Made by a program: the position numbers and the translations under genes
The notes under the pieces: generated by a model
The model's input: the letters and a program-made list of their open reading frames with translations, nothing else
Told to the model about the DNA's origin: nothing
Database searches by the model: none
Shown here: positions 7,829-59,995 of the stretch, one piece after another
Layout of the letters: each line of letters opens with the position of its first letter
How positions within the stretch are numbered: position 1 is the stretch's first letter
Origin: an uncultured Bacilli bacterium
Lineage (GTDB): Bacteria; Bacillota_I; Bacilli_A; RF39; UBA660
DNA: 64,000 nt
Assembly: GCA_944373145.1 (NCBI GenBank)
Contig: CALWAL010000001.1
Location: 64,105 to 128,104, forward strand
Direction: 5' to 3'

Positions 7829-8572
7829 TTAATATTTTTGCCCACAATTTTGACAAAATTCATCTGTTGGATTTTTCTTTGGTTGGCCACAATTCTTACA
7901 TACAACGGCAACTTGAGCTACAGGCGTTACTGGCGTAACTGGTGATACTGTTGGCACTGGTTGTACTGGTGTAACTTGTTGTACTGGTGTTACTGGAGCT
8001 TGTGGTTGAGCTGAAGTTACTGGTACAACTGGTGTTACTGGTTTAGATGGAACTAGTTTTTTTAATTCGTCCATATTTTCCATAACATATAACACAATTA
8101 AAGCTATTCCACCTAAAAGCATTAACCAAAAACCAAAAGATAATCCTTCAAAACTAAAGTCTTGAGCTGCAAGAAGTGTAAGTGGATACCAAAAACCAAT
8201 TCCAGCCGCTAATAACGAAAAACTTTTAGCCTTATTAAAGAAATATGTTAAAGCAGCAATTACACCAAAAAGTGCTAAAAGAATTGCCGAAAACTTACCA
8301 CTTTCCCAAACACTAACTGATTCAGTGATTCCAAAAAACGAAATAGAATAATATGGGATAAATACTGCAAGAGCTATTAAAGCACCTGCTCCTACTCCTA
8401 CCCACTTCATAATTTCCTTTTTATCCATTGGCTTTTTTGGAGTAACTGGCATAACGGGTGTCATTGGTGCAACAGGCGTAGCTGGAGCTACAGGCATAAC
8501 AGGAGCTACAGGTGTTACTGTTTGTTGTGGAATTCCACTTGGCACTTGATTATTAAAATTATTTTCGTTCAT
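7829..8572 (-). CDS. Pro/Val/Thr-rich membrane protein with a C-terminal double CxxC zinc ribbon.
   Basis: PVxPV repeats at both ends. Several TM helices in the middle. C-terminal CKNCGQ...CQNCGQ. Confidence 0.5.
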   Translation of the reverse strand: MNENNFNNQVPSGIPQQTVTPVAPVMPVAPATPVAPMTPVMPVTPKKPMDKKEIMKWVGVGAGALIALAVFIPYYSISFFGITESVSVWESGKFSAILLALFGVIAALTYFFNKAKSFSLLAAGIGFWYPLTLLAAQDFSFEGLSFGFWLMLLGGIALIVLYVMENMDELKKLVPSKPVTPVVPVTSAQPQAPVTPVQQVTPVQPVPTVSPVTPVTPVAQVAVVCKNCGQPKKNPTDEFCQNCGQKY

Positions 8573-21897: not shown

Positions 21898-22401
21898 CTA
21901 TTCTATACTTTTAGCGTTTAAATTTTCCATCAATTCTTCTTTATACATAAGTCCAGCACGACTAAATACTACATCCCCTTCACTCATAACTAATAAAGTT
22001 GGAATAATAATTTGTGGGTTTTTATAATTCATAACATCCGTTACATCATCTATAACAATGGAATATTGTTCATCATTTAAATCTTGACGATTTAAAATAT
22101 ATACTACAGCTTCACGCTCAGAAAAAGCAATTTTAATTTCTTCTAAAAAAGTTTGACTTATTTCATCTTCTTCATTATAAATCAAAATAGCATAAGTTTC
22201 TGTTTCATATGCCTCTGAACGAAGTTCTAAATATTTGTCATAATCAATATACTCAATAGTTGCTGTTGTTGGTTTAACTTCTTCAACAGCTGGCTCTTTT
22301 TTTTCGTCATCCCGTGCTATAATCAAATATATAATACTTCCTAGTAATACAGTCGTAACAATAAAAAAGATAATTTTATTTCTTAATCTCATCTTAATCA
22401 C
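21898..22401 (-). CDS. Membrane-anchored protein with a thioredoxin-like C-terminal fold that lacks the CxxC motif.
   Basis: N-terminal TM (IIFFIVTTVLLGSIIYLII). C-terminal IIPTLLVMSEGDVVFSRAG resembles the thioredoxin PTLLxFKxGxxV region. No cysteine pair. Confidence 0.4.
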   Translation of the reverse strand: MIKMRLRNKIIFFIVTTVLLGSIIYLIIARDDEKKEPAVEEVKPTTATIEYIDYDKYLELRSEAYETETYAILIYNEEDEISQTFLEEIKIAFSEREAVVYILNRQDLNDEQYSIVIDDVTDVMNYKNPQIIIPTLLVMSEGDVVFSRAGLMYKEELMENLNAKSIE

Positions 22402-22470: not shown

Positions 22471-23463
22471 CTATTTTCCAAAGTTAAAAAATCCTTTTTT
22501 CTTTTTTGGCTTATCTTCTTTTTTTGGTTCTTCTTTAACATCGGGAAGATCAGTTATTTCTACTTCATCAACCTCTTCCTTTTTTGATTTACCTTCTTCA
22601 ATGTTAATTTCGTCTTCTACCGCTTCAAAAGCATCATCTTTTGGTTCATCAATAACCCCCGGGGCCTCAACATCTTCAAAGATTGAATCTTCATTATCTA
22701 AAATAACCATACCATTTTCATCAAATTTAACATCCACATTTTCTTCAACTGCTGTTGATCCTTCTGTTCCATCAGCTACAACAACGCCATTTTCATCGAA
22801 TTGATAATTTTTTAAAGTTTTAGACTCTTTTTTATCTTCAATTACAACACCGTTTTCATCAAAAACATAACGTGGTTCCTCAATTTTATCATTTTGATTA
22901 TTCGTTTCCTTATCGGCCACCACAATACCATTTTCATCAAATTGGTAGTTTCCTGAAGTTTTAGATTCTTTTTTATCTTCAATTACAATACCATTTTTAT
23001 CAAAAACATAACGTGGTTCCTCAACTTTATCATTTTGATTATTCGTTTCCTTATCAGATGCTACGACCTCAGAAGCTAACTTATCAGCTACTACAACACC
23101 GTTTTCATCAAATAAATATCCGCCATTTGCTTTTGGTGATAAAACAACATCAACCGTTTCATCTAACCTATTTTCATTATCAACTTCAGATTTTACGGAC
23201 TTTAACTCTACTGGTAAAGAACTAATAAAAATTTTAGACTCTTCATCTTTATATCCATAAGAATATAATTCAATAATATCGCTATGATTAAAATAATTTA
23301 TATCTTGGTTTTTGCTAAAGCCCTTTGGAAATGGCACACCAATATAATCATATCCTTGATTTTTATAACCTATAATAACTTGTTTATTATTTAAATTTTT
23401 AACAACACACACTGAGCCAAGTGGTAAAAACTTTAACTCCATAATCTCCCTCTTTTCCTTCAC
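22471..23463 (-). CDS. DUF4176-domain protein with about 6 C-terminal FDENGVV repeats.
   Basis: N-terminal FLPLGSVCVVKN...VIIGY...DYIGVPFPKG matches the DUF4176 pattern common in Firmicute T7SS loci. Repeated Y(Q/V)FDENG(V/I)V(V/I)(A/E)D units follow. Confidence 0.6.
   Translation of the reverse strand: MKEKREIMELKFLPLGSVCVVKNLNNKQVIIGYKNQGYDYIGVPFPKGFSKNQDINYFNHSDIIELYSYGYKDEESKIFISSLPVELKSVKSEVDNENRLDETVDVVLSPKANGGYLFDENGVVVADKLASEVVASDKETNNQNDKVEEPRYVFDKNGIVIEDKKESKTSGNYQFDENGIVVADKETNNQNDKIEEPRYVFDENGVVIEDKKESKTLKNYQFDENGVVVADGTEGSTAVEENVDVKFDENGMVILDNEDSIFEDVEAPGVIDEPKDDAFEAVEDEINIEEGKSKKEEVDEVEITDLPDVKEEPKKEDKPKKKKGFFNFGK
22800..23060. repeat. Intragenic tandem direct repeat: two copies of about 140 bp, roughly 90% identical.
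   Basis: Segments near 22818-22915 and 22958-23056 are near-identical (ttttagaCtcttttttatcttcaattacaa...cgtttccttatc). They encode the repeated 47-aa FDENGVV module. Confidence 0.7.
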
Positions 23464-23468
23464 GTTTT

Positions 23469-24008
23469 TTATTCTGCACTTATAACAACACCATTTTCAT
23501 CAAATTTAATATTGCTAAAAATTGGCCAATCTTTTCCTTCTTCAGTCGTTTCTTTTGATATCGATTGTTCATAGTTCATTTCTTTATGAAATGGATTATT
23601 AACTCCACCTACATCATTAGTGCTTATAACCTTCTCTTGAATTGGTTGCTCTTTTTTTTCTGTTTTAGTTGACGGTTGTGCAAAAATTACTACACCGTTT
23701 TCATCAAATTCAAAATTAGTAAAGACATTATTATTTATTGTTTTATTCTCTTGTTGACTATTTAATTTTTTGTTCAATAACTCAAAATCAGCATTTTTAT
23801 AACCCATATACTCAATTGTTAATATGTCTCCATGATTAAAACAAATACGATTTGATCCTAAAGTTCCTTCTGGATAAATACACCCTTGATAATCATATAA
23901 TTTTACTTTTTCTGTATAATCAAGTGCAAAATACCCCATAATCATGACTTTACGATTGCTCGCTTTAATTGTACATATAGAGCCAATAGGCAAAAATTTT
24001 TGATTCAT
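23469..24008 (-). CDS. DUF4176-domain protein (shorter paralog, 2 FDENGVV motifs).
   Basis: FLPIGSICTIK...VMIMGY...YQGCIYPEG N-domain. Start moved to MNQKF, which has an AGGAGA RBS. Confidence 0.6.
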   Translation of the reverse strand: MNQKFLPIGSICTIKASNRKVMIMGYFALDYTEKVKLYDYQGCIYPEGTLGSNRICFNHGDILTIEYMGYKNADFELLNKKLNSQQENKTINNNVFTNFEFDENGVVIFAQPSTKTEKKEQPIQEKVISTNDVGGVNNPFHKEMNYEQSISKETTEEGKDWPIFSNIKFDENGVVISAE

Positions 24009-24115
24009 AACATCTCTCCTACAGTTATTATAAAAATTATATCTAAAAATAATAAAAATTGCAACATATTCATTCAAATGTAACTAAAAAAAGATATAAC
24101 TTTTTAAGTTATACC

Positions 24116-24424
24116 TTAACTAACACTACTACCTCGATCTACAATCTCTTCAATAGCAATCATCGCAAGTGCACTATTAATTTCATCAATAGCTTCATCA
24201 TATTTTCTATTACTTTTATTTAACCAATCACGAATATCAATTAAATTTCTTCGCATTTGATTAATATATTGACAATATTCATTTAAATAGTTTGCATAAC
24301 GAAAATCACCAGGAATAGACATTGTATTATTAACAGAAATTAAATCTTCTAAATTGTCAATCGTTGAATCCAAACTAGGTAATACGTCTCTTGATATATC
24401 AATATTTTTAAAATTCAACTTCAT
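24116..24424 (-). CDS. Small helical T7SS-locus protein of unknown function, possibly a substrate or chaperone.
   Basis: 102 aa, predicted all-helical. Tightly packed (1-nt gap) behind the WXG100 gene. Confidence 0.4.
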   Translation of the reverse strand: MKLNFKNIDISRDVLPSLDSTIDNLEDLISVNNTMSIPGDFRYANYLNEYCQYINQMRRNLIDIRDWLNKSNRKYDEAIDEINSALAMIAIEEIVDRGSSVS

Positions 24425-24712
24425 CTAATCTCTCCTCAATGAATTTATTTCTTTTTCAAAATCATCAGCATCATCTACTAAATGTCTACCCAATTTATAA
24501 ATAGTATCCTTAAATTGAAAATATTGATTTTTTTCAGCATTAGCACGGTTAGCAAACGCTATCGATGCTTCACCAGTCCAAATCTCATGATTAGAAACAT
24601 TTGACAACTTATCAAAAAGAAGTTTAAAATCTTCATTTAGTGATAATGATAATTCCATCATACGATTACCACAATCACGCATTTTTATCGTATCAATTTT
24701 AATTTCTGCCAT
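24425..24712 (-). CDS. WXG100 family protein (EsxA-like).
   Basis: 95 aa. Central W-x-G motif (HEIWTGEASIAF). Helix-turn-helix length typical of WXG100. Confidence 0.75.
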   Translation of the reverse strand: MAEIKIDTIKMRDCGNRMMELSLSLNEDFKLLFDKLSNVSNHEIWTGEASIAFANRANAEKNQYFQFKDTIYKLGRHLVDDADDFEKEINSLRRD

Positions 24713-24721
24713 ATTTCCTCC

Positions 24722-24766
24722 CGATAAAAATTTTAGCTAACAACTGTTAGCTAAAATCTATTTAAT
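24722..24766 (-). terminator. Palindromic hairpin between T7SS small genes; possibly an intra-operon attenuator or terminator.
   Basis: TTTTAGCTAACA-AC-TGTTAGCTAAAA, an 8-bp stem flanked by T and A runs. Confidence 0.35.
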
Positions 24767-25090
24767 TTAATCTTCTTTAGCAGCTTCAGCTAAAGCCCTT
24801 TCTTCATCCTCTATAGCCCTTAAAATGCTATTAATTTTTTGATTAATTGCACTCATAACTTCTGAGGAAAGGAAGTTTTTTTTATCAATACAAGTAGTAC
24901 GCGCCTTTTTTAATTTATAATTATCGGCACTTACTTCATCAATTAGATAATAATCACTAACTTTTAAAGCTCTTTCAGAACTATCTATTACCCGCTCCAA
25001 ATGACGTATTGAATTTTGAACATCATCAGATAAATCGCGATAAGTACGTAATTGTCGATATAAACTTGAAAGGCTTGCCATTATTACCAC
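24767..25090 (-). CDS. Small helical protein (T7SS-associated, unknown function).
   Basis: 107 aa, coiled-coil-like. No WXG motif. Confidence 0.4.
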   Translation of the reverse strand: MVIMASLSSLYRQLRTYRDLSDDVQNSIRHLERVIDSSERALKVSDYYLIDEVSADNYKLKKARTTCIDKKNFLSSEVMSAINQKINSILRAIEDEERALAEAAKED

Positions 25091-25101
25091 CTAATTTCTA
25101 A

Positions 25102-25578
25102 TTATCTTTGTCTTGCGTATCTATCAACAGATTGAGATACTTCTTGACCAGCTGTATTTAAAGTATCGTTCATTGCTGCTTGTTGAGCTTCATAATTATC
25201 TTTAATTTCCATTAAAATATCGGCTAATTTTAATAATTGAGATGTGTAGGCACGACATGCATCCATTACACCACCAATATAAGCTTTACAAGCTTGTTGC
25301 ATACCTGGATCTGCAAATGCCTTACTTGGGTCTGTGTTAACATTTACTTCATTTAAATGATTTTCAATTGCTGCAACAGCACTATCAATTGCTGTTGTCA
25401 TATCGTTAATTTTATTTACATTAATTCCCACAACACTTCCTGGAATCAAAGAACCGATAGCTGCACTAGCTTGACTTTTAATACTATTAAAAGTATTTGA
25501 AATTGCATCAAGTGCATCATTAGCTCTAGCGCCAACCATAGAAGTGAATTGAAGGACCTCTGATTTAATTGTTGCCAT
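25102..25578 (-). CDS. Helical 158-aa protein, possibly EsxB/LXG-like or an atypical WXG100 relative.
   Basis: Ala/Ser/Asn-rich helical sequence. Immediately downstream of a WXG100 gene. Confidence 0.35.
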   Translation of the reverse strand: MATIKSEVLQFTSMVGARANDALDAISNTFNSIKSQASAAIGSLIPGSVVGINVNKINDMTTAIDSAVAAIENHLNEVNVNTDPSKAFADPGMQQACKAYIGGVMDACRAYTSQLLKLADILMEIKDNYEAQQAAMNDTLNTAGQEVSQSVDRYARQR

Positions 25579-25593
25579 TATTTATTCTCCTTC

Positions 25594-25926
25594 CTAAAAT
25601 ATAGATTGGCCACTAATTTCTTCAGCCATTCCAGTGTCTTCTGAATGATAAGTTTCTTCTTGAGCCGCAAGTGTAGCGTTAAAAACTTCTTCCATTTCTT
25701 GAAGTTTAGCTTTTAATGCTTCTGCTGATTCTGATAATTTAGCACAAAATGCATCGCATGCTTGTCCTTGCCATCCTTGTTGTAACGTATCCTTAATAAT
25801 TTCCGTTTGGTCTGTTATAATTCCATTTGTTTCAATAATTGCTGCTGTATTTAGCTCTGCAACATAAGCAGCTGCTCCAGTGGAACTATATCCAATAGTA
25901 ATATCCTCTATTCCTAATCCTCCCAT
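25594..25926 (-). CDS. WXG100 family protein.
   Basis: 110 aa. W-x-G motif (QQGWQGQACDAF). Helical hairpin length. Confidence 0.7.
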   Translation of the reverse strand: MGGLGIEDITIGYSSTGAAAYVAELNTAAIIETNGIITDQTEIIKDTLQQGWQGQACDAFCAKLSESAEALKAKLQEMEEVFNATLAAQEETYHSEDTGMAEEISGQSIF

Positions 25927-25939
25927 AAATTCACCTCCA

Positions 25940-26299
25940 TTAATATTTTTCCTTATATCTCTCTATGGAATTAGATAAGATCTCACCTTTAGCTATTGTA
26001 AAGTTCTTCTTTACAGTATTGTGAACACCATATATACGAGCTTTAACTTTAACTAAATCTTGAGAATAACACAAGATATTTTTATTAACAATTGGAAAAC
26101 TTTGGCGCAACTTGGCAAAAGAATTTCGAAAGTTTGTGCCACATTCACATTCATAAAAAGAAACAGTTCCGTCAACTAAATCTTCAAGTTCTAAAAATTG
26201 AGCTTTAATACGTTCTGCAATCTCTCCAATCTCTAAAACTAAATTATCTAGCTTAGGTTCATTAATTCCAAAAACTTCCTGTTGCTTCACTCTCGCCAC
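25940..26299 (-). CDS. Hypothetical 119-aa protein (T7SS-locus).
   Basis: ORF carrying a CECG motif. No recognisable family. Confidence 0.35.
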   Translation of the reverse strand: MARVKQQEVFGINEPKLDNLVLEIGEIAERIKAQFLELEDLVDGTVSFYECECGTNFRNSFAKLRQSFPIVNKNILCYSQDLVKVKARIYGVHNTVKKNFTIAKGEILSNSIERYKEKY

Positions 26300-26357
26300 T
26301 CCTATCCTATGCTAATCTAATATCTTTACTTAAGTATACCGATTTTTACTTAATAAA

Positions 26358-28079
26358 TCAATATATTTTTTCATTTTGTTTAAGTTTAATATACTCATTA
26401 ATTGAAATCGTCTTATTGCGACTAGTTGTATCATGTTTTTCCTGGATAATTACACCCATATCATCATTTACCCAAGGTATTTCAATAGCGTCATATACTG
26501 TTTCATTTAAAATATTATTAGTCTTTATTTCCATTTTACCATTAAAAGCATTATACGCTGCTTCTATATCATCAATTGATAATCCCAATTCATTAGCTAG
26601 CACTTGGAAAAAAGCACTTTGAATATTTTGATAATAATCTAAAAATGGTTTAATAGTGTCATAACGCGATTCATCTGTATATAGAATATGTGTACTCAAT
26701 GTAGATTCAAGCGTTGATATAAGTTCAAAAACATCTTCTAATTTAACCGATTGACTAGACATCTTACTAATTAAATTATCGTAAAAAGTTCTACTGAAAT
26801 ATTTAGATAAACCTACTTTTAATTCAATTTTTAATTGAACTAATTCCTCATCGCTCATTTCATGTCCTAAGATTTCTTTTTCATACAAACTCATAAAATC
26901 ATTAGGTTCTACTTGAATAATATTAATTGCATATAACACTTTTAAAAGTTCCATTTTCTCTTCTTCTGTATTACAATTAAAAGCCTCGAATAATTTAGAA
27001 ACATCATTTTGAACAGAAATTTGTTCTAATGAATTAACATCAAAATTATCATTTAAGCCATGAACAAATTTCAAAGTGTTTAAGTAACTTATATAATTAG
27101 CGTACGTCGTTGGATCGCTATCGTGTAATTTAGCAGCTAAATTTTCGGCAGCCGCTTCCTCAAACCACCTATTGTAAAGCGAATTTACTTCTAAATCATC
27201 AAATTCATAACAAAAACCATAAGCGGATTTAACGCCTACTTGATCACGATGTTCTGTAGATAATCGTTGAAATAGATGTACTGTCTCGTGGGATAATGTT
27301 ATTAATCCTGCATTTTCATTATTACTGATTGACACCATCATATCTAAATTAGATGGCATAACTGTCATGCAACCATCATCAGTAATTGAAGCATTGGCTC
27401 CTGTCGCTGATTTAAACATACATAAATGTTGAAGATTATAGCTTAAATCTTCTAAATTATAATCCCAACCTTTATTCAACATATCATTTACTGTATCAGC
27501 AATTACTTGGCAATATTCGGCGATATAATTTTTGTCTAGTTCAGTATAAATAGAATATGGATTTTTATCTTTATAAGCTACATTATTTTTTATTACTAAA
27601 TCATATAACTGTTGAGCATCAACATACCCATTAGCCATGATGGGTTGAATAATTCCATCATAAGCAGGAATTTGTAAATATCTTTGATATGCTGTTTCAA
27701 CATCATATAAATCACTATAAGCATAATCAATAGGAATTTGTATAATTTCATTAATTAGCTGTTCAGAAGCACTGTTTGATATGGTTACGCTACTATCAAT
27801 AATGGTTTGATTATAATCATCTATTTCCTTTATCTCATAATCTTCTAGCATTTTTTCAATTTCTAATTCCAAATCGCTTTTTTCTTCCACTACTTCTACA
27901 TAAGTAGGCTGATTAACTTGCGTTTCTGTATTATGCTTAGGGACAATACTGCATGCTGTAAATAATGTTGAAATTGTTAGTGCACCAGTAATAATATATA
28001 ATTTAAATTTATTTTTTTTCGTTCTTTTTTTAGTTTCTTTTCTCTTCAATCTTTCAAATACTTTTAAATTTTTTAACAT
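26358..28079 (-). CDS. Lipoprotein with an HExxH zinc-metallopeptidase-like motif.
   Basis: Lipobox LFTAC after a basic N-terminus. LSHETVHLFQ (HExxH) with a downstream EEAAAE. Confidence 0.5.
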   Translation of the reverse strand: MLKNLKVFERLKRKETKKRTKKNKFKLYIITGALTISTLFTACSIVPKHNTETQVNQPTYVEVVEEKSDLELEIEKMLEDYEIKEIDDYNQTIIDSSVTISNSASEQLINEIIQIPIDYAYSDLYDVETAYQRYLQIPAYDGIIQPIMANGYVDAQQLYDLVIKNNVAYKDKNPYSIYTELDKNYIAEYCQVIADTVNDMLNKGWDYNLEDLSYNLQHLCMFKSATGANASITDDGCMTVMPSNLDMMVSISNNENAGLITLSHETVHLFQRLSTEHRDQVGVKSAYGFCYEFDDLEVNSLYNRWFEEAAAENLAAKLHDSDPTTYANYISYLNTLKFVHGLNDNFDVNSLEQISVQNDVSKLFEAFNCNTEEEKMELLKVLYAINIIQVEPNDFMSLYEKEILGHEMSDEELVQLKIELKVGLSKYFSRTFYDNLISKMSSQSVKLEDVFELISTLESTLSTHILYTDESRYDTIKPFLDYYQNIQSAFFQVLANELGLSIDDIEAAYNAFNGKMEIKTNNILNETVYDAIEIPWVNDDMGVIIQEKHDTTSRNKTISINEYIKLKQNEKIY

Positions 28080-28112
28080 GACAACTCTCCTATCTAAAAA
28101 TATTATATCATC

Positions 28113-28148
28113 AAAAAAAAGAAGCGCAAAATAAATTTACACTTCTTT
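28113..28148 (-). terminator. Rho-independent terminator after the esaB-like gene.
   Basis: AAGAAGTG-loop-CGCTTCTT hairpin followed by T8 on the minus strand. Confidence 0.55.
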
Positions 28149-28401
28149 ACAATAGCACTACACTCGTACCATTACGAATATTTGTATCACGTACCAACGT
28201 ATCAATAGGATAAATTTCACCGTTATTTCGGTCATATAAGTAAGTACGATTAGTTCCTATAAAAGAGCCATTTGTTATTTCATATAAAGATTTATTTAAA
28301 AGATTAATAATATTTCCTATTTTACGATTAACTGGGAAGTAAACATTATAAGTTTGATCAATAGCTGGAACAATTAGTTCTACTAAAACTTTATTTTTCA
28401 T
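28147..28401 (-). CDS. esaB: YukD/EsaB-like ubiquitin-fold T7SS protein.
   Basis: About 84 aa (MKNKVLVELIV...YNVYFP...NGTSVVLL), matching the YukD beta-grasp pattern. GGAGG RBS. The start overlaps the essC stop. Confidence 0.7.
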   Translation of the reverse strand: MKNKVLVELIVPAIDQTYNVYFPVNRKIGNIINLLNKSLYEITNGSFIGTNRTYLYDRNNGEIYPIDTLVRDTNIRNGTSVVLL

Positions 28402-31400
28402 CGTTTCCCTCCTCCACATCTTCAACCATATAACGAATTGTTGTATGTTTTCCACGACTAATAGCAAATCCCATATAAGGGAAATTAGTTTTTCCATCTT
28501 CAGCTGTTATAGTTGATGTATTAATAGCTAATTGCGTTGCAACTCCTTCATCTAACCAAATACCATAAGCTGTATCAATATTAGTTTGATACCAAGGTTC
28601 TGTTTGTAATATTTTGTAAGCTGAATAGCTATCAAAGAAAACATAATAACTATTATTAATAACCGATGAATTGTTAAAAAGACTATTTAAAACGACTCGA
28701 CCATTTGCTGATAATTTTACTTTCATCTCTGATATACCAATAAATATATTTAAAGTTCTTACTTCTTTATCCTTAGCTTTAATAATATCATTATTTAACT
28801 TAATTATTTCACTATCATAGTTATTTTGAATATAATTCACATTGTCAATTCTTTTACTTAAAATGGCTGCAAAATCAATAACATTAATTTTTAAATTATC
28901 AATAAGTGATACCATTTTAATAAAAGTACTTAAGAAACTAAATTTATTATCATCAAATTTATTAAACAAAATAGGAATAAACTTGCTAGCCGTTAAATCA
29001 TAAGCATATGGAGTTTTAGATTCAACTGCATAGCCAATTGGAACATTTGTTAAATCATTTAAGTTATCTTTAACAGAACTAAAATAAACAACTTCTGGTA
29101 CCATTGGAATTTTTTTAGCTCGTACATTATAAGCTTGACTCAACTTTTTAGCTGTATCACGAACCAAATTATTTATTTCTTTTTTTGTTGTAATCAAGGC
29201 TGTTTGAAATTCATATGCCTTACTATCTTTAGCAACTAAACCACGTCCAAAATATTTAGTTGGTAATTGTCCTTTGATAGCACCAACTAAATTACGATAT
29301 TCTGTTTCATTTGGAATTTGCAGACATAATTTATGGCTAAAATTTTGCAACATTCTTAATTTAACTGTACTAGTTGAAATAGACGTAATGATAAATGATA
29401 TTCCATATTTATTGCCATCACGATAAAATGTTTGAATTGATTCAGCTACTCGAGCATAATTTTCTGAAAATATTTCATAATTGTTAATGATAGTAACTAT
29501 TAAAGGTAATTTATTACCGCTATTTTCAATATATTCTTTATAACTACCGCCATAATCAGCCATTAATTCTTTACGACGTTCAATTTCCTCATCAATCATC
29601 ATTAAAATACCCAAAATTTTATCTTGTTCTTCAGTCGTAGCAATTTCTCCTATATGTGGCATTTTATTGAAAGTTTTTAAAGCCTCCGAACCACAGTCAA
29701 TAACATAAAAATTAATCTCATCTGGTGTATGTTCCAAAGAAGCTGACCACAAAATAGTCTGAACAAGATTTTCTTTACCAGCACCAGGTTGTCCCCAAAT
29801 AATAGCATTACCGTTCATTAAATCTAAAGTTAAAATACCTTGTTCTTGTTGTGATGGATTATCATATTCACCAATAACAGGATTAATATGATATGGCGTT
29901 GGTTTATAATGATATTTTTTCTTAATCTCATCTACAAATATTTCTTCTGGAATAGGATCTAGCCAAAGCGTACTTGTCTTCAAATTTTCTTTTTTACCTA
30001 AGTTATAAATATATTTAACGATATTTGTTAATTGATCCCCATAATTAGTATTATCTGTTTCAATTTTAATTAAATCTTTAATGCTTTTTGTAACATTTCC
30101 AACATTATCTATAAAATCTATTGAATCATCAATTTTCTTAATTACTCGATCAGATGGAACATATTTTGCCCCAGCCCATCCTGATTGACCTTTAGCAAAA
30201 TAATCATCATAACCAACTTGCAAATAAAAGCGCCCTGTTTCTTTAATACTAGCCGCTTCTGGGCGTTTTAACATTTCCATACTATCAGCTCGATCTTGAA
30301 CTTTTAAGCATACTTTAAATTTTGAATTACTCCAAATTTGATCATTAACTACACCACTAGGTTTTTGTGTTGCCAAAATAAGATGTACTCCTAATGAACG
30401 ACCGATACGAGCCGTTTGAATCAATTGTTGCATGAATTCAGGTTGTTGGCTTTTTAACTCGGCAAATTCATCACTAATAATAAATAAATGTGCCATTGGC
30501 TCTTTTACTTGACCTTCACGATATAACCGTTGATATTTATAAATGTCGATGGTTGATTCACCTAAAACATCACGAGTTTCATTAAAAATACGTTGCCGTC
30601 TTTTTAATTCTGACTCAATTGAAACTAAAGTTCTATTCATTGAAGCTGTATCTAGATTAGTAATCGTCCCAGCTAAATGAGGAATACGAACACCTAACTC
30701 CTTATTTTCAAATGCTCCAGCCAAGCCACCACCTTTATAGTCAATAAGAACGAATTGTACTTCATATGGATGATAATTAACACACATTGATAAAATATAT
30801 GTAATAATAAATTCTGACTTACCACTACCAGTTGAGCCAGCAATTAAACCATGTGGTCCATGAAATTTTTCGTGAAGATTTAATTTAAACTGTTCACCAC
30901 TTGCGTGAACACCAATCGTTGTATTTAAACTGTTAACAGGATTATTAGTCTGCCAACGATTTAAAACATTTAATTGTTCAATTTTAGAAACATTAAGCAT
31001 TTCCAAAAATGAAATAGAGTTAGGCAAAACGGATATTCCTTCTTTACTTAATAAAGGAATATTATTAACTTTTTGACAAAGATATTCCATATCAGCATTG
31101 TCCAAATATTCTGTTTTAAAAACAATCTGATTACTAGAATTTATATTACTCTCTAAAATACAACCTTCATTATCACCTATCTCAATGAATGACTCGCATT
31201 TAGCCGGTAAATTCTTCATTGTACTTGAAAAAATAGCAATACTAAATCCATAATTGGTATCAGCATATTTCAAAATATTACTAATGATTGGAGCTTCATC
31301 ACTACTCTTATAATCATCGCAAATAATTAAATAATATGGTAAAAAGTTTTTATATTCATCAGTTTTTTTTATGTCTTCAGCTTCACTTTTATCTTTTACT

Positions 31401-33007
31401 TTATTTTCTAATAAATCTTTACGAGTTTTAAATTCACTCTCCAAAAAAGATGAAACTTCTTTTATTTCTTCTGCATTCGTAGCAAAAAAGCGTAAACTTT
31501 TGTCATCATTAAAACAGTATGGTGAATACTTTAAATAGTTCCAACGCGATTGATTTTTTTCATTAGTTAAAATAACTATTTTTAGATCGCCACCACTATG
31601 AAGCGCTAAAAGTTGAACCATCAAACCATTAATATAATCGTTTTTACGATTAGCACTACAAATAAAGGCTGAAATTTTTTTATCGATCAAAGAAATATTA
31701 ATAGGAACATCGACTAATTTTTTATGACGATCGACAATTGTATAAACTCGTTTTAATAAATCATCATCATCTAAAGTAAACTTTTCCTTAGGTGCCACAA
31801 TATGCAATGGAGTGTTAACACTTCCTAATCCTAAGCGCAATTTCAAAAAATCATCATCAGATATGTTCCTTCCCCAAAAATTACGATTATTAACAGAGTT
31901 TATAACGTTAACGCAACCATTAGCGGTTAAACTGTTATCGCGCATAATTTGGGCCTGTTTTTTCATAATCATTATAATTTTTTCTTCTTTTTCATCTAAA
32001 TAATCGTTGTATTTACGAATGCGAAGTTCTTCTCTTTCTGCTCTTTTCTTTTTATGGTAAGCTGATGCCATTTTAGGAATAATTAAACTTCCAACAATCA
32101 TTGCAATACATAAGACAATTTGCGGCAAAGCCGACATGATGGTTCTTGTCCCTGTCATCAATCCGTAACCAACATTATATCCCATAACAAGTGAAGAGGC
32201 TCCCATCGTAATACTACTACCGATTGTCAACCAAAACGGTGTATCTTCTTCTTTTTCGGAAGCTGGTGGAGCATCTATTTCCAATTCTTCTTCTTCAACT
32301 ACTTCTCTAATTCTTGGTGTATGAAAAAAATAATCATCGTCGTCATATAAATCCATTGATTGCTGTTCATCACTAACTGGAGTATATTCTTGATTAGTTT
32401 GAGCAGGTTGATAAGTATAAGCATTCAAGCCTGCCACTGTTACCAATTTATTTGGATTATTAATTTGAATAAAATGTTGCATCCAAACAATTTTTAAACC
32501 TTTAATAAAAATTGTATCTCCGGCATGTAAAACTGCTTTTGTAACGCGATTGCCATTTAAATAAGTAGCATCATTAGCGTTTATAAACCAATTTTGACCT
32601 TCATATGTAATAAGTGCATGACTAGATGCAATGTTATTATTATGGTAACAAATATTGCAATTATTTTCTTTACCTATTAAAAGTTGTTTTAGGCCTTTAA
32701 ATTCTAATTTATAAGTTTCAACCTCAACAGTAGGTAGTGCATATAATACAATATTTTCTTGGCTAGAAACAACTTTCAAGTCATAAGAACCATAATCAAT
32801 TAAAGATGCTTCGTCCGAAAATGTAGAATTGTTTACAACATCAACACTACCATTGCTTTTAATTTTCCACTTACCTTGATCAGCTTCAAACGATAAAATA
32901 CAATCTTTACCCTTGCTCGTTTTATGGTTAACAACGAAAGAATCTTCAATCTTTGAAGGCAATTCATATTTAAATATTTTATCTTCTTCAACTAAAAATA
33001 TTCGCAT
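28391..33007 (-). CDS. essC: Type VII secretion FtsK/SpoIIIE-family ATPase EssC.
   Basis: About 1538 aa. N-terminal tandem FHA-like region. TM segments (ITMGASSLVMGY..., IVLCIAMIVGSLIIP). Three P-loop domains (GSTGSGKSE; GQPGAGKEN; a third degenerate). Start set at the ATG with 8-nt spacing from AGGAG. Confidence 0.88.
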   Translation of the reverse strand: MRIFLVEEDKIFKYELPSKIEDSFVVNHKTSKGKDCILSFEADQGKWKIKSNGSVDVVNNSTFSDEASLIDYGSYDLKVVSSQENIVLYALPTVEVETYKLEFKGLKQLLIGKENNCNICYHNNNIASSHALITYEGQNWFINANDATYLNGNRVTKAVLHAGDTIFIKGLKIVWMQHFIQINNPNKLVTVAGLNAYTYQPAQTNQEYTPVSDEQQSMDLYDDDDYFFHTPRIREVVEEEELEIDAPPASEKEEDTPFWLTIGSSITMGASSLVMGYNVGYGLMTGTRTIMSALPQIVLCIAMIVGSLIIPKMASAYHKKKRAEREELRIRKYNDYLDEKEEKIIMIMKKQAQIMRDNSLTANGCVNVINSVNNRNFWGRNISDDDFLKLRLGLGSVNTPLHIVAPKEKFTLDDDDLLKRVYTIVDRHKKLVDVPINISLIDKKISAFICSANRKNDYINGLMVQLLALHSGGDLKIVILTNEKNQSRWNYLKYSPYCFNDDKSLRFFATNAEEIKEVSSFLESEFKTRKDLLENKVKDKSEAEDIKKTDEYKNFLPYYLIICDDYKSSDEAPIISNILKYADTNYGFSIAIFSSTMKNLPAKCESFIEIGDNEGCILESNINSSNQIVFKTEYLDNADMEYLCQKVNNIPLLSKEGISVLPNSISFLEMLNVSKIEQLNVLNRWQTNNPVNSLNTTIGVHASGEQFKLNLHEKFHGPHGLIAGSTGSGKSEFIITYILSMCVNYHPYEVQFVLIDYKGGGLAGAFENKELGVRIPHLAGTITNLDTASMNRTLVSIESELKRRQRIFNETRDVLGESTIDIYKYQRLYREGQVKEPMAHLFIISDEFAELKSQQPEFMQQLIQTARIGRSLGVHLILATQKPSGVVNDQIWSNSKFKVCLKVQDRADSMEMLKRPEAASIKETGRFYLQVGYDDYFAKGQSGWAGAKYVPSDRVIKKIDDSIDFIDNVGNVTKSIKDLIKIETDNTNYGDQLTNIVKYIYNLGKKENLKTSTLWLDPIPEEIFVDEIKKKYHYKPTPYHINPVIGEYDNPSQQEQGILTLDLMNGNAIIWGQPGAGKENLVQTILWSASLEHTPDEINFYVIDCGSEALKTFNKMPHIGEIATTEEQDKILGILMMIDEEIERRKELMADYGGSYKEYIENSGNKLPLIVTIINNYEIFSENYARVAESIQTFYRDGNKYGISFIITSISTSTVKLRMLQNFSHKLCLQIPNETEYRNLVGAIKGQLPTKYFGRGLVAKDSKAYEFQTALITTKKEINNLVRDTAKKLSQAYNVRAKKIPMVPEVVYFSSVKDNLNDLTNVPIGYAVESKTPYAYDLTASKFIPILFNKFDDNKFSFLSTFIKMVSLIDNLKINVIDFAAILSKRIDNVNYIQNNYDSEIIKLNNDIIKAKDKEVRTLNIFIGISEMKVKLSANGRVVLNSLFNNSSVINNSYYVFFDSYSAYKILQTEPWYQTNIDTAYGIWLDEGVATQLAINTSTITAEDGKTNFPYMGFAISRGKHTTIRYMVEDVEEGNDEK

Positions 33008-33118
33008 ACACACAACTCCTACTATTCTTCTATTATATATAACATATTATATCGAACTTTTTGGACTTTTACAATACATTATTCTTGCGGCAAAAACTAT
33101 TTAATGATATAGTAATTA

Positions 33119-33868
33119 TTGTTAGTTGAACTAACAATTAAGGAGGATTTTATGTTAGAACTTATTGATATTTGTTTTGAGAAAGATAACAAAAAAATAT
33201 TAAATAATATTAACTTAAAAATAGATGATAAAAGTTTTATAGCTATTACCGGCCCTAATGGTTCTGGTAAAAGTACTTTAGCCAAAATTATTATGGGCAT
33301 TGAAAAACCAAATAGTGGCAAAATTCTTTTTAATGGTACCGACATTACAAATTTAAATATTGACGAACGCGCTAATTTAGGTATATCATTCGCTTTCCAA
33401 CAGCCAGTTAGATTTAAAGGAATTACTATTTACGATATTTTAAAGTTAGCATCACACAATAAAAAACTAACTAAGCAAGAAGCTTGTCATGTTTTAAGGA
33501 AAGTTGGAATATGTGCTGAAGAGTATTTAAATCGAGAATTAAATAGTTCTCTTTCTGGAGGGGAACTAAAAAGAATTGAGATTGCTACCGTTTTATTACG
33601 CCAATCAAAATTAAATATTTTTGATGAACCAGAAGCTGGAATTGATTTATGGAGTTTCAATAATTTAATTAATATTTTTCAGAAAATGCATAATGATAAT
33701 CAAGCTTCATTGATTATTACCCATCAAGAACGCATTTTAAATATTGCTGATAAAATCATCTTAATTAAAAATGGTAAAATTGATTATTTTGGGTCAAAAA
33801 AAGCAATCATCGAAAATATATGTGCTAACTGTCCTAACGAAGGAGGCTGTGATTATGAATGTTGCTGA
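33119..33868 (+). CDS. sufC: SufC-like Fe-S cluster assembly ABC ATPase.
   Basis: GPNGSGKSTL Walker A. LSGGELKR signature. Walker B IFDEPEAGID. AGGAGG RBS. Confidence 0.8.
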   Translation: MLVELTIKEDFMLELIDICFEKDNKKILNNINLKIDDKSFIAITGPNGSGKSTLAKIIMGIEKPNSGKILFNGTDITNLNIDERANLGISFAFQQPVRFKGITIYDILKLASHNKKLTKQEACHVLRKVGICAEEYLNRELNSSLSGGELKRIEIATVLLRQSKLNIFDEPEAGIDLWSFNNLINIFQKMHNDNQASLIITHQERILNIADKIILIKNGKIDYFGSKKAIIENICANCPNEGGCDYECC

Positions 33869-45611: not shown

Positions 45612-45978
45612 AACAATAACATTTCATAAGCCATGTTCTGTACCTATAAGGTGGCAAACATTTATCTACCAATTGCTTGGTCCCTAACTTAGTTCAATTT
45701 CCTTGTTAAAGCTCCCCTACCAAAATTTGGGTTTCTCGCTCGTGGGGTTTACCGCGTTCCACTTATTCTATTTCTAAAATATATCGTCACTATGGCACTT
45801 TTATACCTAATATAACCATATCATAAAGACTTAGGTTACCTCGGAGCCGTTAGCAAATGCTACTAAAGGTTATTTTTTCCCTTTACACGAACACTACAAA
45901 CATCGCAGTTTGTGCGAGCATGGACTTTCCTCTATATATCTATATGTAAATATACAGCGTTTGCCGAAATATTATTCT
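45612..45978 (-). ncRNA. rnpB: RNase P RNA, type B.
   Basis: The reverse complement contains AGAGGAAAGTCCATGCTCGCAC and GTGGAACGCGGTAAACCCCACGAGCGAGAAACCCAAATTTTGGTAGGGGA. Both are near-identical to B. subtilis rnpB. A P1 pairing between AAUAUUUCG (5') and UGAAAUGUU (3') defines the ends. Confidence 0.9.
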
Positions 45979-52003: not shown

Positions 52004-52831
52004 CTAAAATTTAATTAATAATCTTTGTCCTGCTTTAATTAAATTAGGATTATCTCCAATAATATCTTTATTTTCTTCATATAAATCTTTCCAATATACT
52101 TTATACTTCATCGCTATATCCCATAAAGTATCTCCTTTTTGAACTATATAATATTTATTATCATTGCTTAATATTTCATTAACCAAATCTTGTATCTCAT
52201 TATAATTATATCCTGCTTCTTCTAACCTTTTCTTTCGCATATTTCCATTATCCCATTTTCCTTGAATAACTTCCTTAGCAATTTCATTATTAGATTTTTT
52301 TAAATTATTACTTTTTTCTTCATAGATTTTCCATTCATATGAATTTTTAGATACTTTCACATCTGGATGTAAAAATAACGCTTTAGTTATATCATATTGA
52401 TTATTAATAAGCCAAGCATATGCTTTTACTTTTGGTTGATACTTTCCTTTATACCAACCAATTCCTTTAAATCTTCCTTTTCCTACTGCAATATGAATGT
52501 GACTACCAGTTACATTACCTTTTACTCCAGGTTGATAGTATATTTCACTTTGCTTTATCTTTTTATTAATGTATAAATCTGATACATCATTATCATGTAA
52601 TGTCATAATAGTCATATAATCAATTGTTCCATCAGCATATTCTACTTTATTTAAACTCTCTAACCATATGCCATTACAATTACTATATTTTCTTTTTATT
52701 TTACCAGTAAACGGAGCTTTTAAATATTTTAGTTTTGATATATCAATAGCTAAATCACCATTATGAGAAAAATTGCTATTCATATTTTGACTAATATATA
52801 AAACATCTACATTAAGTATAGCTTTCTCCAT
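52004..52831 (-). CDS. Peptidoglycan hydrolase: M23-like endopeptidase domain plus C-terminal LysM (endolysin-like).
   Basis: SHNGDLAID ... TGSHIHIA align with the M23 HxxxD ... HxH motifs (compare lysostaphin HYGVD ... HLHF). C-terminal LysM (YIVQKGDTLWDIAMKY...AGQRLLI). No signal peptide. Confidence 0.6.
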   Translation of the reverse strand: MEKAILNVDVLYISQNMNSNFSHNGDLAIDISKLKYLKAPFTGKIKRKYSNCNGIWLESLNKVEYADGTIDYMTIMTLHDNDVSDLYINKKIKQSEIYYQPGVKGNVTGSHIHIAVGKGRFKGIGWYKGKYQPKVKAYAWLINNQYDITKALFLHPDVKVSKNSYEWKIYEEKSNNLKKSNNEIAKEVIQGKWDNGNMRKKRLEEAGYNYNEIQDLVNEILSNDNKYYIVQKGDTLWDIAMKYKVYWKDLYEENKDIIGDNPNLIKAGQRLLIKF

Positions 52832-53024
52832 TTAACTTCTCCTGTATTAAATTTAAAACTGCACTTATTCCCATAGCAATCGCACCTACCATCATAGATT
52901 TAACTAGATCAAAATTAGATAAATCTGTAGTTGGTAAAACAACAATGATGCTTGCGATGAAGCCTTCTATAAATGTTTTAAGCACTTTGCCAAGTAACTT
53001 GTCGTTCAATATTTTCTTTAACAT
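52812..53024 (-). CDS. Holin-like small membrane protein (phiLC3-type topology).
   Basis: 70 aa. Basic N-terminus, two hydrophobic helices separated by a PTTDLSNF turn, polar C-terminus. Overlaps the lysin gene start. Confidence 0.5.
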   Translation of the reverse strand: MLKKILNDKLLGKVLKTFIEGFIASIIVVLPTTDLSNFDLVKSMMVGAIAMGISAVLNLIQEKLNGESYT

Positions 53025-53391
53025 CTTCTACCTCCTTTAACTCACTAGGTAATTTATATAATTCATCAACCATATTTTTAGCAAATATATCACCTTCAAA
53101 GTGTTGATAATTCCTATAAATTTCACTAATATTATCTTTCATATAATTAGGACAGTATCCTAATTCCATATATTTTTCATATATTCTAATAATTTCATTT
53201 TTTAGTAATGCTTTTAAGCCATTTTTTAAACTCATATAACCTTTTAACATATAAGCTACACTAGAACTTATAATTGTAAAAAGTATCTCTAACCAATACT
53301 TTAAAATAAACTCAATCATATATATCACCTCTTCAAGATAAAAATGGAGATATCGCTTGATATCTCCGAAATAAAACCTAAAAATTTTCAT
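52978..53391 (-). CDS. Small membrane protein of phage-lysis-cassette type (XhlA/BhlA-like?). The true start is probably the internal MIEFILKY.
   Basis: N-terminal TM (WLEILFTIISSSVAYML) followed by a charged helical tail. Sits directly upstream of the holin-like gene. Confidence 0.35.
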   Translation of the reverse strand: MKIFRFYFGDIKRYLHFYLEEVIYMIEFILKYWLEILFTIISSSVAYMLKGYMSLKNGLKALLKNEIIRIYEKYMELGYCPNYMKDNISEIYRNYQHFEGDIFAKNMVDELYKLPSELKEVEDVKENIERQVTWQSA

Positions 53392-53821
53392 CTATGATGT
53401 ATATAAAATTACTATTATATGGCCATAAAATATGCAATCGATCTCGCCCATTATTAGCAGTTTCATAATAATATAAGCATTTTTCATCTATTCGTGGAAT
53501 ATTTTTTTCTAAATTTAACTCATTCATAAATATTTCATTCAATAAAACTTTTTTTTCTTCTTCAATATACCTCCATTCAAGTTTTAGAAGTTCTTTCTTC
53601 TTATTGTCGTCAGCATATTCATAAACACTATACTTAGTATAATCAGAAAAATAAAATTTCTCCTGATAATATATTACATAGTCAGGCACCGGAATCTTAA
53701 CTTCATACTTTATTTTCATTTTTTCATAATGGCTTAGCATATGATTATTATCAACAGATACGAATAAAATACTAAGACAAATCATAACTAAAACAAATAT
53801 TAAAAAAAGAAATTTTTTCAT
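53378..53821 (-). CDS. Candidate Rhs-toxin immunity protein (membrane-anchored or secreted, 147 aa).
   Basis: Located immediately 3' of the Rhs toxin gene. N-terminal signal/TM (FLFLIFVLVMICLSILFV). Confidence 0.45.
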   Translation of the reverse strand: MKKFLFLIFVLVMICLSILFVSVDNNHMLSHYEKMKIKYEVKIPVPDYVIYYQEKFYFSDYTKYSVYEYADDNKKKELLKLEWRYIEEEKKVLLNEIFMNELNLEKNIPRIDEKCLYYYETANNGRDRLHILWPYNSNFIYIIDENF

Positions 53822-59800: not shown

Positions 59801-59995
59801 CTGAACAATATAATCATTATTCTTATTTTTGTAATAATTGTTTTCTTTAATAAGAGTATTGTCTATTTCTTCATATTTATTACTTTTTTTAAAGTGGACT
59901 GGATTGCTATATACTTTAGCAATCATTTCTCCGTTTTCTTGTAAAAAATGTTTTTCCTTTTCTTTTCTCAAACCAACTATTTCAATTTCTTTCAT
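53843..59995 (-). CDS. Rhs/YD-repeat polymorphic toxin, 2050 aa, with no signal peptide.
   Basis: Many YD repeats (YxYDxxGN). Rhs core terminus ...NPFRYRSYYYDNETNLYYLNSRYYSTTFGRFLNADG. About 220-aa C-terminal variable domain. DNRLRE-like N-terminal region. Lectin-like internal modules. Strong RBS (TAGGAGG-N6-ATG). Confidence 0.85.
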   Translation of the reverse strand: MKEIEIVGLRKEKEKHFLQENGEMIAKVYSNPVHFKKSNKYEEIDNTLIKENNYYKNKNNDYIVQFMENTNLLLMKMIKDDYFLEIKLNDQNNVKGKFLDKKVIYEDILPGIDLEYSLLPTKVKENIILKNNNIDKISFLIKTNLNLVVNDKKIDAKENDKCIFTFEPLFMIDNNQNINYNIHYNLIQNEVGYLLDLVLDEEWLNLTSYPVIIDPIITNTTQEGKVYDTYIYPGDTGKDKNSQNILKAGVERINNQDIINRTLIKFDLPTIGTGSQIIKSYLNLYNYGDGPLALEKIDWNVVDVHRLTQDWNENTANWTIMNNKYDPKLENYSYSARSAWIIRDNTYEIVELRSLEMDITNLVKKWYSGTPNYGLMVKSHNEEYEDELYPAFFSNVNESLAPTLIIHYRNQNGLESYMNYIPQSYSIGDTNINTYNGNLVGQFQIGRTVAEKNTVSLNLIYNTNDVILDNDYGVGKGYKFNYHQLIQIPEEGETTEEINYLKYIDADGTIHYFQEQLDENDKSTGNYIDEDGLNLTITKAESKYNMIDKYGNISSFNIINDIGYLSIITDTENKVIQVIYDDNNRITKVIDPNNSEINIIYNENSIVIVSTDETVTLNHENNKLVNITNLLGQTMFTYNSNSLIEYITDINGLKIKYEYYDQIPYRIKKVSEYSINDTLGQSFDMTYSYNTTTIKDNKNRVQTMTFNNNGNLISSSSLIDSTNLKGAYSIANRYLETEVVDSSNPYKNKVIDSYMPIKYVNNLLSNTSFEENTINFITEENELTLSTEYVNNGLKSLKATSNFYQEVNVSKGKYYTFSAYIKNNQNITLSLSYDSVVKEEIIKASDEFKRHDITIFYPEEAISSLKIRFILPDSTTFYIDDIQLEEGEIVNNYNMLSNSDFSLGYSDWTLSASEYSELSPSGPTEDSEITTIDNSECFNVVSINDNDDKALKISMAPTKNSTISKIFPIKGKTGDVYEVSFWYKNEGITGIDLYDSIQNSVSVGFNYIEESDLGTGILMPDKINSKCEEWQYYRYTFVAMLDYDGITLEFNQALNFNDMYITNICMFKDPREINYNYDGNGNVSTISNLSNETSNFKYDSNNQLIKMTDPQGKNLKYEYDNLKSERILNGISETGINNTIKYDSFGNPIITKIVNKIPNEITNGLYRIRCKGTNDYLKNINKAIVFDDEECNHDLWQFTLLENGYYTINHNVIGDNYFTATSNQIVLAPNNLNNSLFKLIEQENGSYYFQLYRDENDTVESNLPRYIKRENNILFISELIEQDPNFEFYIETIENEFIESSAEYTEDSKFIKSVTDSNLNKMTYDIDLLTGLLNSITNPKGKVTSYTYDDKKRVIEINQGDKKINYTYNSNNVLSKIKDDDKEYNFVYDEFLNIKEIKIGDNITLVTNHYEENNGNLISSTYGNGHIISYAYDNFDRVKTIIKSNDTYKYSYDNQGNLVKLETNSDIYKYAYDLSQKLNLYKFNEFEVKYIYDTCDNVIGKEHSLDNVQNSITNILNKEDAIVKTEFDNNSINYNYDSLGRLINRNISNVFNTTYTYLTNGNRTSLLIDSIKNNNDIYKYKYDKLNNITHIYHNNILENEYRYDKYNQLIEENNYIDKEIIKYTYDKFGNILNRKVLDMNNYDIKLEDKYEYNNSNWKDQLTKFNDLTISYDDIGNPLTIGNNTLTWINGRQLNSYNNNTYKYNSNGIRIGKTVNGVKTEYYLEGTSIIFEKRNNNVIYYIRNSMDDLIGFKYNNDVYYYVKNIQKDIIGILDSNCNLIVKYRYDSWGNILSIKDSNGNDITDSNHIGIINPFRYRSYYYDNETNLYYLNSRYYSTTFGRFLNADGIMASNQDIMSLNLYAYCSNDYINNIDKNGFGIRWLTKLAIKIGNYFLSKFEKVELASKMLNHSAKGKGKKLSTDIYIELTNELGSSKEINEEISKGIKNSKNGKFTVVSSKNFSSTSNLKNGVGKANFEIYGYQSEKCEDVWFIDVKVYDTYDFDEWRDDSTFSGFANNLGYMWQDMGILTPYYWETDFSIYIIGDVSKCNYEW

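Follow-up and report, generated by a model that had tools for sequence, protein, structure and literature searches.

Two adjacent genes in a 64-kb stretch of DNA from an uncultured Bacilli bacterium (64,000 nucleotides of contig CALWAL010000001.1, hereafter the window) encode proteins in which a small N-terminal DUF4176 domain is followed by a C-terminal tail carrying a reiterated FDENG hairpin. A hairpin tail of this kind on a small DUF4176 domain is a new architecture within a known family, a third beside its small and large classes. The two genes, called here D6 and D2, close a gene cassette that encodes EssC of a type VIIb secretion system (T7SSb). We read their products as cytoplasmic T7SSb chaperones with a multivalent hairpin docking tail, D6 being in addition anchored to the membrane. 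We put the probability of this composite reading at about 50%.

The longer paralog, D6, is encoded at 22471..23442 (323 amino acids (aa) plus stop), and the shorter, D2, at 23469..24008 (179 aa plus stop). Both genes are on the minus strand, as are all the parts of the two proteins whose coordinates are given below. An earlier note, made from the letters of this DNA, described two DUF4176 paralogs here. Both minus-strand reading frames are indeed present, and both score above the gathering cut-off of the Pfam family. The listed open reading frames (ORFs) open at the first possible start codon, which is GTG 23463 for D6 and TTG 24077 for D2; probably neither is the one used. A GAGGGAG ribosome-binding site is located upstream of ATG 23442, from which the protein begins with MELKFLPLGS, and an AGGAG site upstream of ATG 24008, which gives the N-terminus MNQKFLPIGS. 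Homologs of D6 begin with MELKF or MNLKF. Public gene calls also have 323 aa for D6 and 179 aa for D2, and P0121, of 179 aa, is 100% identical to D2. Therefore, the real products are the proteins of 323 and 179 aa. No signal peptide or transmembrane segment was found in D2 or D6. Just upstream of D2 there is a promoter-like site (TTGCAA, a 17-nt spacer and TATAAT; 24036..24064, minus strand), identified by consensus match. The promoter and terminator scans were uninformative in this DNA of 29% GC, with 91 promoter-like sites found and 77 expected.

The membership of D2 and D6 in the DUF4176 family is secure. With a gathering cut-off of 25 bits, PF13780 matched the N-terminal domain of D6 (aa 1-78, 23209..23442) with 59.9 bits (E 2.5e-16) and that of D2 (aa 1-85, 23754..24008) with 67.1 bits, and in both proteins the match begins at residue 5. 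AlphaFold2 was run on each protein as a single chain with a 40-sequence alignment. It modelled these domains with a predicted local distance difference test (pLDDT) score of 76-91 in D6 and 79-93 in D2. Solved DUF4176 structures have a C-lobe with a four-stranded antiparallel sheet and helices, and the D2 model matches this fold. In Foldseek, it superposed on the small DUF4176 structure 9DCS with a template modelling score (target) of 0.77 and a root-mean-square deviation of 1.5 A over 79 columns, at 25% identity. It also superposed on the C-lobes of LtcA and LtcB (9DCR, 9DCT, 9MNO) with E values of 1.6e-4 to 1e-3. For D6 the fold is supported by sequence, its family profile finding 9DCS with an E value of 1.1e-11.

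The earlier note called DUF4176 proteins uncharacterised, a description overtaken by work of 2025. That work showed DUF4176 proteins to be cytoplasmic chaperones that stabilise the LXG toxins of T7SSb (PMC12478183, PMC12482557). They are dimeric and exist in a small form of 70-130 aa and a large form of 200-250 aa, in which an N-lobe precedes the DUF4176 C-lobe, and LXG toxins depend on them both for export and for stability inside the cell (Gkragkopoulou et al., PNAS 2025, PMC12478183). The same source reports that LtcA folds a disordered amphipathic helix of the toxin TelA. For Streptococcus suis DUF4176 proteins the same conclusion about a chaperone role was drawn (Wu et al., BMC Biol 2025, PMC12482557). 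LtcA (SIR_0168) is necessary for TelA to be exported and is itself not secreted (bioRxiv 10.1101/2023.07.21.550046).

The closest characterised counterpart is MQE10_09270 of Streptococcus intermedius GC1825, the small DUF4176 protein of structure 9DCS, which is needed for the stability and export of the toxin TelD. It shares with D2 and D6 the DUF4176 domain and fold and the location at a T7SSb locus. MQE10_09270 is about 100 aa long, has no tail and adjoins a toxin-immunity gene, whereas D2 and D6 have an extra 90-240 aa of disordered tail with FDENG hairpins and close a conserved core cassette, where no toxin or immunity gene was recognised. The other relevant pair is LtcA and LtcB (SIR_0168 and SIR_0178). 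Their DUF4176 C-lobe matches the domain of the window proteins, and the presumed common role is that of a cytoplasmic, non-secreted T7SSb chaperone. The 200-250 aa of LtcA and LtcB are due to a folded N-lobe ahead of the DUF4176 lobe (PMC12478183), whereas the extension in D2 and D6 is C-terminal, disordered and repetitive. The genes of the large Ltc proteins sit between lap genes and the LXG toxin gene; next to D2 and D6, no lap or LXG gene was recognised. Thus, D2 and D6 do not belong to the large (Ltc) subclass, because their DUF4176 domain is N-terminal and their extra length is a C-terminal tail.

The repeat unit of the tail has 12 residues of the form hydrophobic-x-F-D-E-N-G-V-V-I-x-D/E and is present in six copies in D6 and two in D2; in the window units the consensus is [Y/F/I/V]-x-F-D-[E/K]-N-G-[V/I/M]-V-[V/I]. 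The first unit of D6 is YLFDENGVVVAD (aa 109-120, 23083..23118), followed by YVFDKNGIVIED (aa 145-156, 22975..23010), YQFDENGIVVAD (aa 166-177, 22912..22947), YVFDENGVVIED (aa 192-203, 22834..22869), YQFDENGVVVAD (aa 213-224, 22771..22806) and VKFDENGMVILD (aa 238-249, 22696..22731). Units 2 and 6 were assigned by motif match; in the other four, AlphaFold2 predicted a pair of strands (residues 109-111 and 117-120, 166-168 and 174-177, 192-194 and 200-203, 213-215 and 221-224, respectively). In D2, the motif, the alignment and the AlphaFold2 model all point to FEFDENGVVIFA (aa 99-110, 23679..23714) and to IKFDENGVVISA (aa 167-178, 23475..23510), which forms the C-terminal tip one residue from the end of the protein. 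The peptide NYQFDENGVVVAD is an example of a single FDENG hairpin. Between the hairpins of D2, two short motifs are at least 90% conserved in a 40-sequence alignment (A2): NPF (aa 138-140, 23589..23597), in the disordered linker, and W-x-I-F (aa 161-164, 23517..23528), which leads into hairpin 2.

The FDENGVV motif noticed earlier is a real conserved repeat. Six-frame translation of the window contains eight FD[EK]NG strings, all of them in D2 and D6, as compared with 0.03 predicted by composition. When the residues of each of the two proteins were shuffled 20,000 times, no more than one copy arose. The spacing of 20-25 aa proposed for the units holds for units 2-6 of D6 (21, 26, 21 and 25 aa) and fails for the first gap of D6 (36 aa) and for D2 (68 aa). 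The array is acidic, as had been suggested: the D6 tail has a net charge of -36 over 238 residues. After its last hairpin, D6 continues with an acidic spacer predicted to be disordered (aa 250-309, 22516..22695), both by its composition and by AlphaFold2, where pLDDT is below 50 for residues 255-311.

In the AlphaFold2 models, each unit is a short two-stranded hairpin with a pLDDT of about 60-76, and the linkers fall below 50. The global predicted template modelling score (pTM) is 0.27 for D6 and 0.47 for D2. Given a confident DUF4176 domain, hairpins of intermediate confidence, a remainder below 50 and a low pTM, the tail resembles a disordered acidic string on which the hairpins are threaded as beads. 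A beta-solenoid or other repeat fold, which the earlier note had considered, was rejected: both AlphaFold2 runs gave isolated hairpins separated by disordered linkers, and in the family these linkers vary widely in length.

Homolog searches gave 302 and 186 relatives, to which a search of a representative library was added. At least 266 relatives combine the DUF4176 signature with 1-11 hairpins, and nearly all of them come from metagenome-assembled genomes (MAGs) of uncultured gut Bacilli. Over 487 distinct units, the core is conserved to 97% (F), 100% (D), 88% (E), 91% (N) and 100% (G); it is followed by V/I, V, I/V, any residue and D/E, and position -2 is aromatic or aliphatic. Thus, the motif persists in relatives with a core conservation of 88-100%. 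Outside the unit, conservation is about 35% at most. Neighbouring units lie 14-106 aa apart (median 28), joined by polar linkers in which E, N, K, S, T and P abound. The last hairpin ends within 16 aa of the C-terminus in 178 of the 266 family members. D2-type proteins keep two hairpins, NPF and W-x-I-F in most of the 40 aligned relatives, with the last hairpin usually at or near the C-terminus.

It had also been supposed that the copy number may vary, and this is what we found. D6-type strains with identical N-terminal domains have six or four units, and in a sister species there are nine or 3-4. In D6 itself, Tandem Repeats Finder detected a DNA tandem duplication (22787..23055) of a 141-bp unit, present 1.9 times with 91% identity, each unit encoding two hairpins with their linkers. 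One such 47-aa two-hairpin unit is absent from the strain variant P0002.

The strict motif is almost exclusive to DUF4176 proteins. We searched 1.84 billion representatives exhaustively with phmmer, using the repeat region as query, and obtained only 147 matches, about 100 of which are DUF4176 fusions. The strict motif occurs in no other ORF of the window and in no non-DUF4176 ORF of 52 related loci. A few proteins carry the repeat without this domain. P0223 (L054 835-1854) and P0300 combine FDENG repeats with an acidic N-terminus and a helical C-terminal domain, and one of the two adjoins ychF. P0303 has a signal peptide, three FDENG units and a C-terminal transmembrane anchor, and no DUF4176 domain. 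In P0277 (L053 710-2509), EssC residues 1-520, with 40% identity to the EssC of the window, are fused in frame to four FDENG units. The locus is a single 2.9-kb contig, and the gene lies between tig (trigger factor) and a dacA-like gene for a D-Ala-D-Ala carboxypeptidase-like protein. Most simply, P0277 is a deletion remnant of a decayed locus or an assembly chimera; therefore, it was left out of the evidence for a link to EssC, although it could be taken for a Rosetta-stone fusion.

No known repeat family reached its threshold on the tails of the window proteins in Pfam (E <= 1) or NCBIfam. Choline_bind_3 scored 15.7 bits on the repeat region against a cut-off of 27, and the unit logo has no conserved W or GW. 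RHS_repeat (PF05593) and MORN_2 (PF07661) were not listed for this region, in the case of RHS_repeat at E <= 1. An RHS shell consists of contiguous units of about 21 aa; the spacing here is 21-68 aa, and no shell appears in the AlphaFold2 models. In some homologs, the summed MORN_2 score does pass the cut-off (P0092, 49.5 bits; P0012, 34.6 bits). Summed over the repeats, the profile of the repeat region is weakly similar to the Rhs effector Tse15 (E 1.6e-6), and the weak end of the exhaustive search consists of secreted RHS and choline-binding proteins. We rejected these similarities as a sign of family identity, as they are generic to this type of hairpin. The YD/RHS (PF05593; the Tse15 shell 8UXT), MORN_2 (PF07661) and choline-binding (PF01473, PF19127) repeats have in common with the FDENG unit the local signature aromatic-x-[F/Y]-D-x-x-G followed by a hydrophobic residue, so the unit is YD-like in shape. 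In those families the repeats are contiguous and regular, about 20 aa long, and build large folded sheets or shells in mostly secreted proteins, in contrast to the 2-6 units of D2 and D6, which are joined by polar linkers that vary, and for which no tertiary packing is predicted. A full-text literature search for FDENG returned nothing relevant, and one on T7SS chaperones and membrane targeting returned no tailed DUF4176 proteins. The available portions of the two DUF4176 papers (PMC12478183, PMC12482557) do not mention a C-terminal repeat tail, a MinD-like end or a compact cassette.

D6 ends with KKKKGFFNFGK, after about 60 acidic disordered residues. This basic and aromatic end, KPKKKKGFFNFGK (aa 311-323, 22474..22512), is a candidate amphipathic membrane-targeting sequence by its conservation and its resemblance to MinD. 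An ending of the type KKKRGFFxFGK/R is conserved in other species and is present in 33 of the 266 family members. A relative without hairpins (L019) keeps a similar basic and hydrophobic C-terminus, KKEKKGLFSFWN. The membrane-targeting sequence of Escherichia coli MinD is KGFLKRLFGG (PMC5471200). In both, a flexible region is followed at the extreme C-terminus by a basic run and then G-F-[F/L]-x-(x)-F-G. The D6 end differs from that of MinD in being shorter and in belonging to an unrelated protein, and its membrane role is suggested by its sequence. To judge by this likeness, the D6 end looks like a membrane anchor of the MinD type.

Both DUF4176 genes are at the 3' end of an EssC (FtsK and FHA) gene cluster, as the earlier note had placed them. 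The upstream part of this conserved cassette, delimited by Pfam and NCBIfam scans and by synteny, occupies 24116..33013, all of it on the minus strand. EssC (28391-33013, 1540 aa, with FHA and FtsK/SpoIIIE domains) lies about 4.4 kb upstream of the DUF4176 genes on the same strand. The gene of an 84-aa protein (28147-28401) overlaps the end of essC and is conserved beside EssC, including in more distant loci. By eye, the C-terminus of this protein, TLVRDTNIRNGTSVVLL, resembles the ubiquitin-like YukD/EsaB, but there was no Pfam match and the protein was not assigned to that family. Next comes a lipoprotein of 573 aa (26358-28079): its N-terminus is basic, it has a lipobox-type signal (LFTAC), and it contains an HExxH motif. 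The lipobox and HExxH are kept in 17 orthologs of 25-32% identity, with HExxH at an equivalent position (residues 229-269, and 338 in one longer ORF), and the protein looks from these motifs like a putative surface zinc metalloprotease and a fixed part of the cassette. The remaining interval (24116-26299) encodes six small helical proteins, two of which have a WxG and weak WXG100 scores in the Pfam and NCBIfam scans. Pfam recognised no EssA, EssB or EsaA domain in the cassette.

Wherever the flank of a related locus extends as far as EssC, which is so in 20 loci (L001-L014, L016-L018, L056/L057), the last gene of the cassette is an FDENG-tailed DUF4176 gene. The gene order, closed by one or two such genes, recurs in other species (L005-L018), and in L056/L057 the cassette is at a different chromosomal site. 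All the carriers in the genome collection are uncultured MAGs, mostly labelled Bacilli; a few are labelled Erysipelotrichaceae, Mollicutes, Tenericutes, Clostridia, Clostridium or Muribaculaceae. Among the sources are gut samples of rabbit, mouse, human, goat and chicken.

From the streptococcal chaperones and the features above, we infer how the tailed proteins may work in this lineage. The small-type N-terminal DUF4176 domain would dimerise in the cytoplasm and hold a secretion substrate by a hydrophobic or disordered segment. The hairpins would act as independent, reiterated docking motifs, each offering a small hydrophobic face and the invariant DENG turn to a partner. This partner would be encoded in the same EssC cassette, with EssC as the prime candidate. 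Several copies of the hairpin would raise the avidity for a multimeric machine, and their number would drift through gain and loss of two-hairpin units. In D6, the KKKKGFFNFGK end would keep the chaperone beside the apparatus at the membrane's inner face. It is conceivable, if rather improbable, that the matter goes further: the FDENG hairpin may be a T7SS docking signal not recognised before, and the membrane-anchored, multivalent D6, helped by D2, may physically couple substrates to the EssC of a stripped-down system in uncultured gut Bacilli and partly replace EssA, EssB and EsaA, which are not recognisable there, with hairpin number tuning how much different strains can secrete.

Several observations weigh against the chaperone with a docking tail. 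No LXG toxin or DUF443 immunity gene was recognised among the cassette proteins (E <= 0.01-1, in scans that covered the cassette and parts of the window). The chaperone role is extrapolated from streptococcal relatives of about 20-25% identity. The likeness of the D6 end to MinD extends over 8-10 residues only. In P0303, the signal peptide precedes the three FDENG units, which would place them outside the cell. Finally, the pLDDT of the hairpins is moderate, and in the protein they may pack together or onto the DUF4176 domain.

One alternative is that the tail serves self-association or autoinhibition. The hairpins would zip together, either inside D6 or across the two paralogs, or fold onto the client groove of the DUF4176 domain, and thereby control the oligomeric state or the release of the client. 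Such a role is possible but doubtful. In its favour, the motif is shared by the two paralogs, whose genes occur together in most close relatives, the hydrophobic face of the hairpin seen in the logo must be buried, the AlphaFold2 confidence for the hairpins is intermediate and not very low, and DUF4176 proteins are dimeric (PMC12478183). However, many species have a single FDENG-tailed DUF4176 protein (L013-L018, L056), and a low pTM, variable linkers and 1-11 copies fit a defined intramolecular fold poorly.

It is unlikely that the units are reiterated T7SS export signals, which would make the proteins substrates or co-exported adaptors of a compact EssC system. The letter pattern [Y/F]xxx[E/D] of the YxxxD/E motif of T7SSa substrates and of the FxxxD motif of the Lap1/DUF3130 targeting factors is present in about two thirds of the FDENG units (Y in 43% and F in 25% at position -2; E in 88% and D in 3% at position +2). 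Of the eight units in the window, four read YxxxE and one FxxxE. The T7SS context is common to both, the genes here belong to an EssC cassette, and the motifs are often at the extreme C-terminus. The S. suis DUF4176 proteins were noted to be without such a motif (PMC12482557), so its presence in the window units is a difference. But the invariant residues of the unit are F0, D1 and G4, not those at -2 and +2. The known export motifs are single and located on alpha-helices, whereas the FDENG units are reiterated and predicted to be beta-hairpins. Moreover, the DUF4176 protein that has been tested, SIR_0168, is not secreted.

Still less probable is a folded beta repeat domain (a solenoid, or a YD-shell-like or choline-binding-like structure) that would bind metal, carbohydrate or the cell wall, probably after export. 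The earlier note had suggested metal or carbohydrate binding, and nothing found here supports it: choline-binding, RHS and MORN repeats are below threshold in the window proteins, which have no signal peptide or transmembrane segment. The similarity to Tse15 and to secreted choline-binding and RHS proteins, the passing of the MORN_2 cut-off in P0092 and P0012, and the signal peptide of P0303 speak for such a domain. Against it, the units do not have the GW and aromatic residues of choline-binding repeats, the spacing of 14-106 aa is irregular with no compact AlphaFold2 fold, and the DUF4176 family is cytoplasmic in experiments.

A functionless low-complexity expansion through replication slippage, which the recent tandem duplication and the indel polymorphism between strains might suggest, is already contradicted by the conservation pattern, as the core stays 88-100% conserved where the DUF4176 domains share about 30-40% identity, the linkers vary freely, and D2-type proteins retain their hairpins, NPF and W-x-I-F.

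Downstream of D6 are a 167-aa membrane protein (21898-22401, minus strand) and then tex. The 167-aa protein has an N-terminal transmembrane segment and a faint thioredoxin-like C-terminus (E 0.007), and its position between the D6-type gene and tex is conserved in several species. Upstream of essC, an 82-aa ORF (33097-33345, minus strand) overlaps a plus-strand ABC ATPase gene (33119-33868) and is probably not a gene. Since the hairpins are YD-like, we considered as a client a 2050-aa RHS-repeat protein of the window (53843-59995, minus strand; RHS_repeat 111 bits), which extends C-terminally past the RHS core and shows no obvious signal peptide. We rejected it: its gene is part of a prophage-like block some 30 kb away, and nothing supporting a link was found. 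On its flanks (52004-53821 and 60016-61191) are a Gp10_C baseplate-like protein, a small signal-peptide protein that is an immunity candidate, holin-like ORFs and a lysin with CW_7 and LysM (endolysin); the block resembles a prophage or a tail-like toxin module. Elsewhere, the window contains a class B RNase P RNA (45622-45972, minus strand, 289.7 bits), a pemK RNA motif (61261-61318, minus strand, 47.1 bits) and SpoIVA-like sporulation genes. A 247-aa protein (7829-8572, minus strand) has Pro/Val-rich PV(T/A)PV repeats at both ends, central transmembrane segments and a zinc-ribbon-like CxxC...CxxC end at the C-terminus.

The finding does not challenge the current understanding of T7SSb. DUF4176 chaperones became known only in 2025, as two size classes. 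The tailed proteins belong to a compact, conserved EssC cassette of uncultured gut Bacilli, and none of the remaining components of this cassette matches a known T7SSb core family. As the tail is a short, portable element that can be mutated, it is a handle for testing the step at which a chaperone hands over to EssC. If the hairpin binds no core part of the system, it would be a lineage-specific decoration of a known family. If it does bind a core part, be it EssC or a different one, T7SSb would have its first defined motif for docking a chaperone to the machine.

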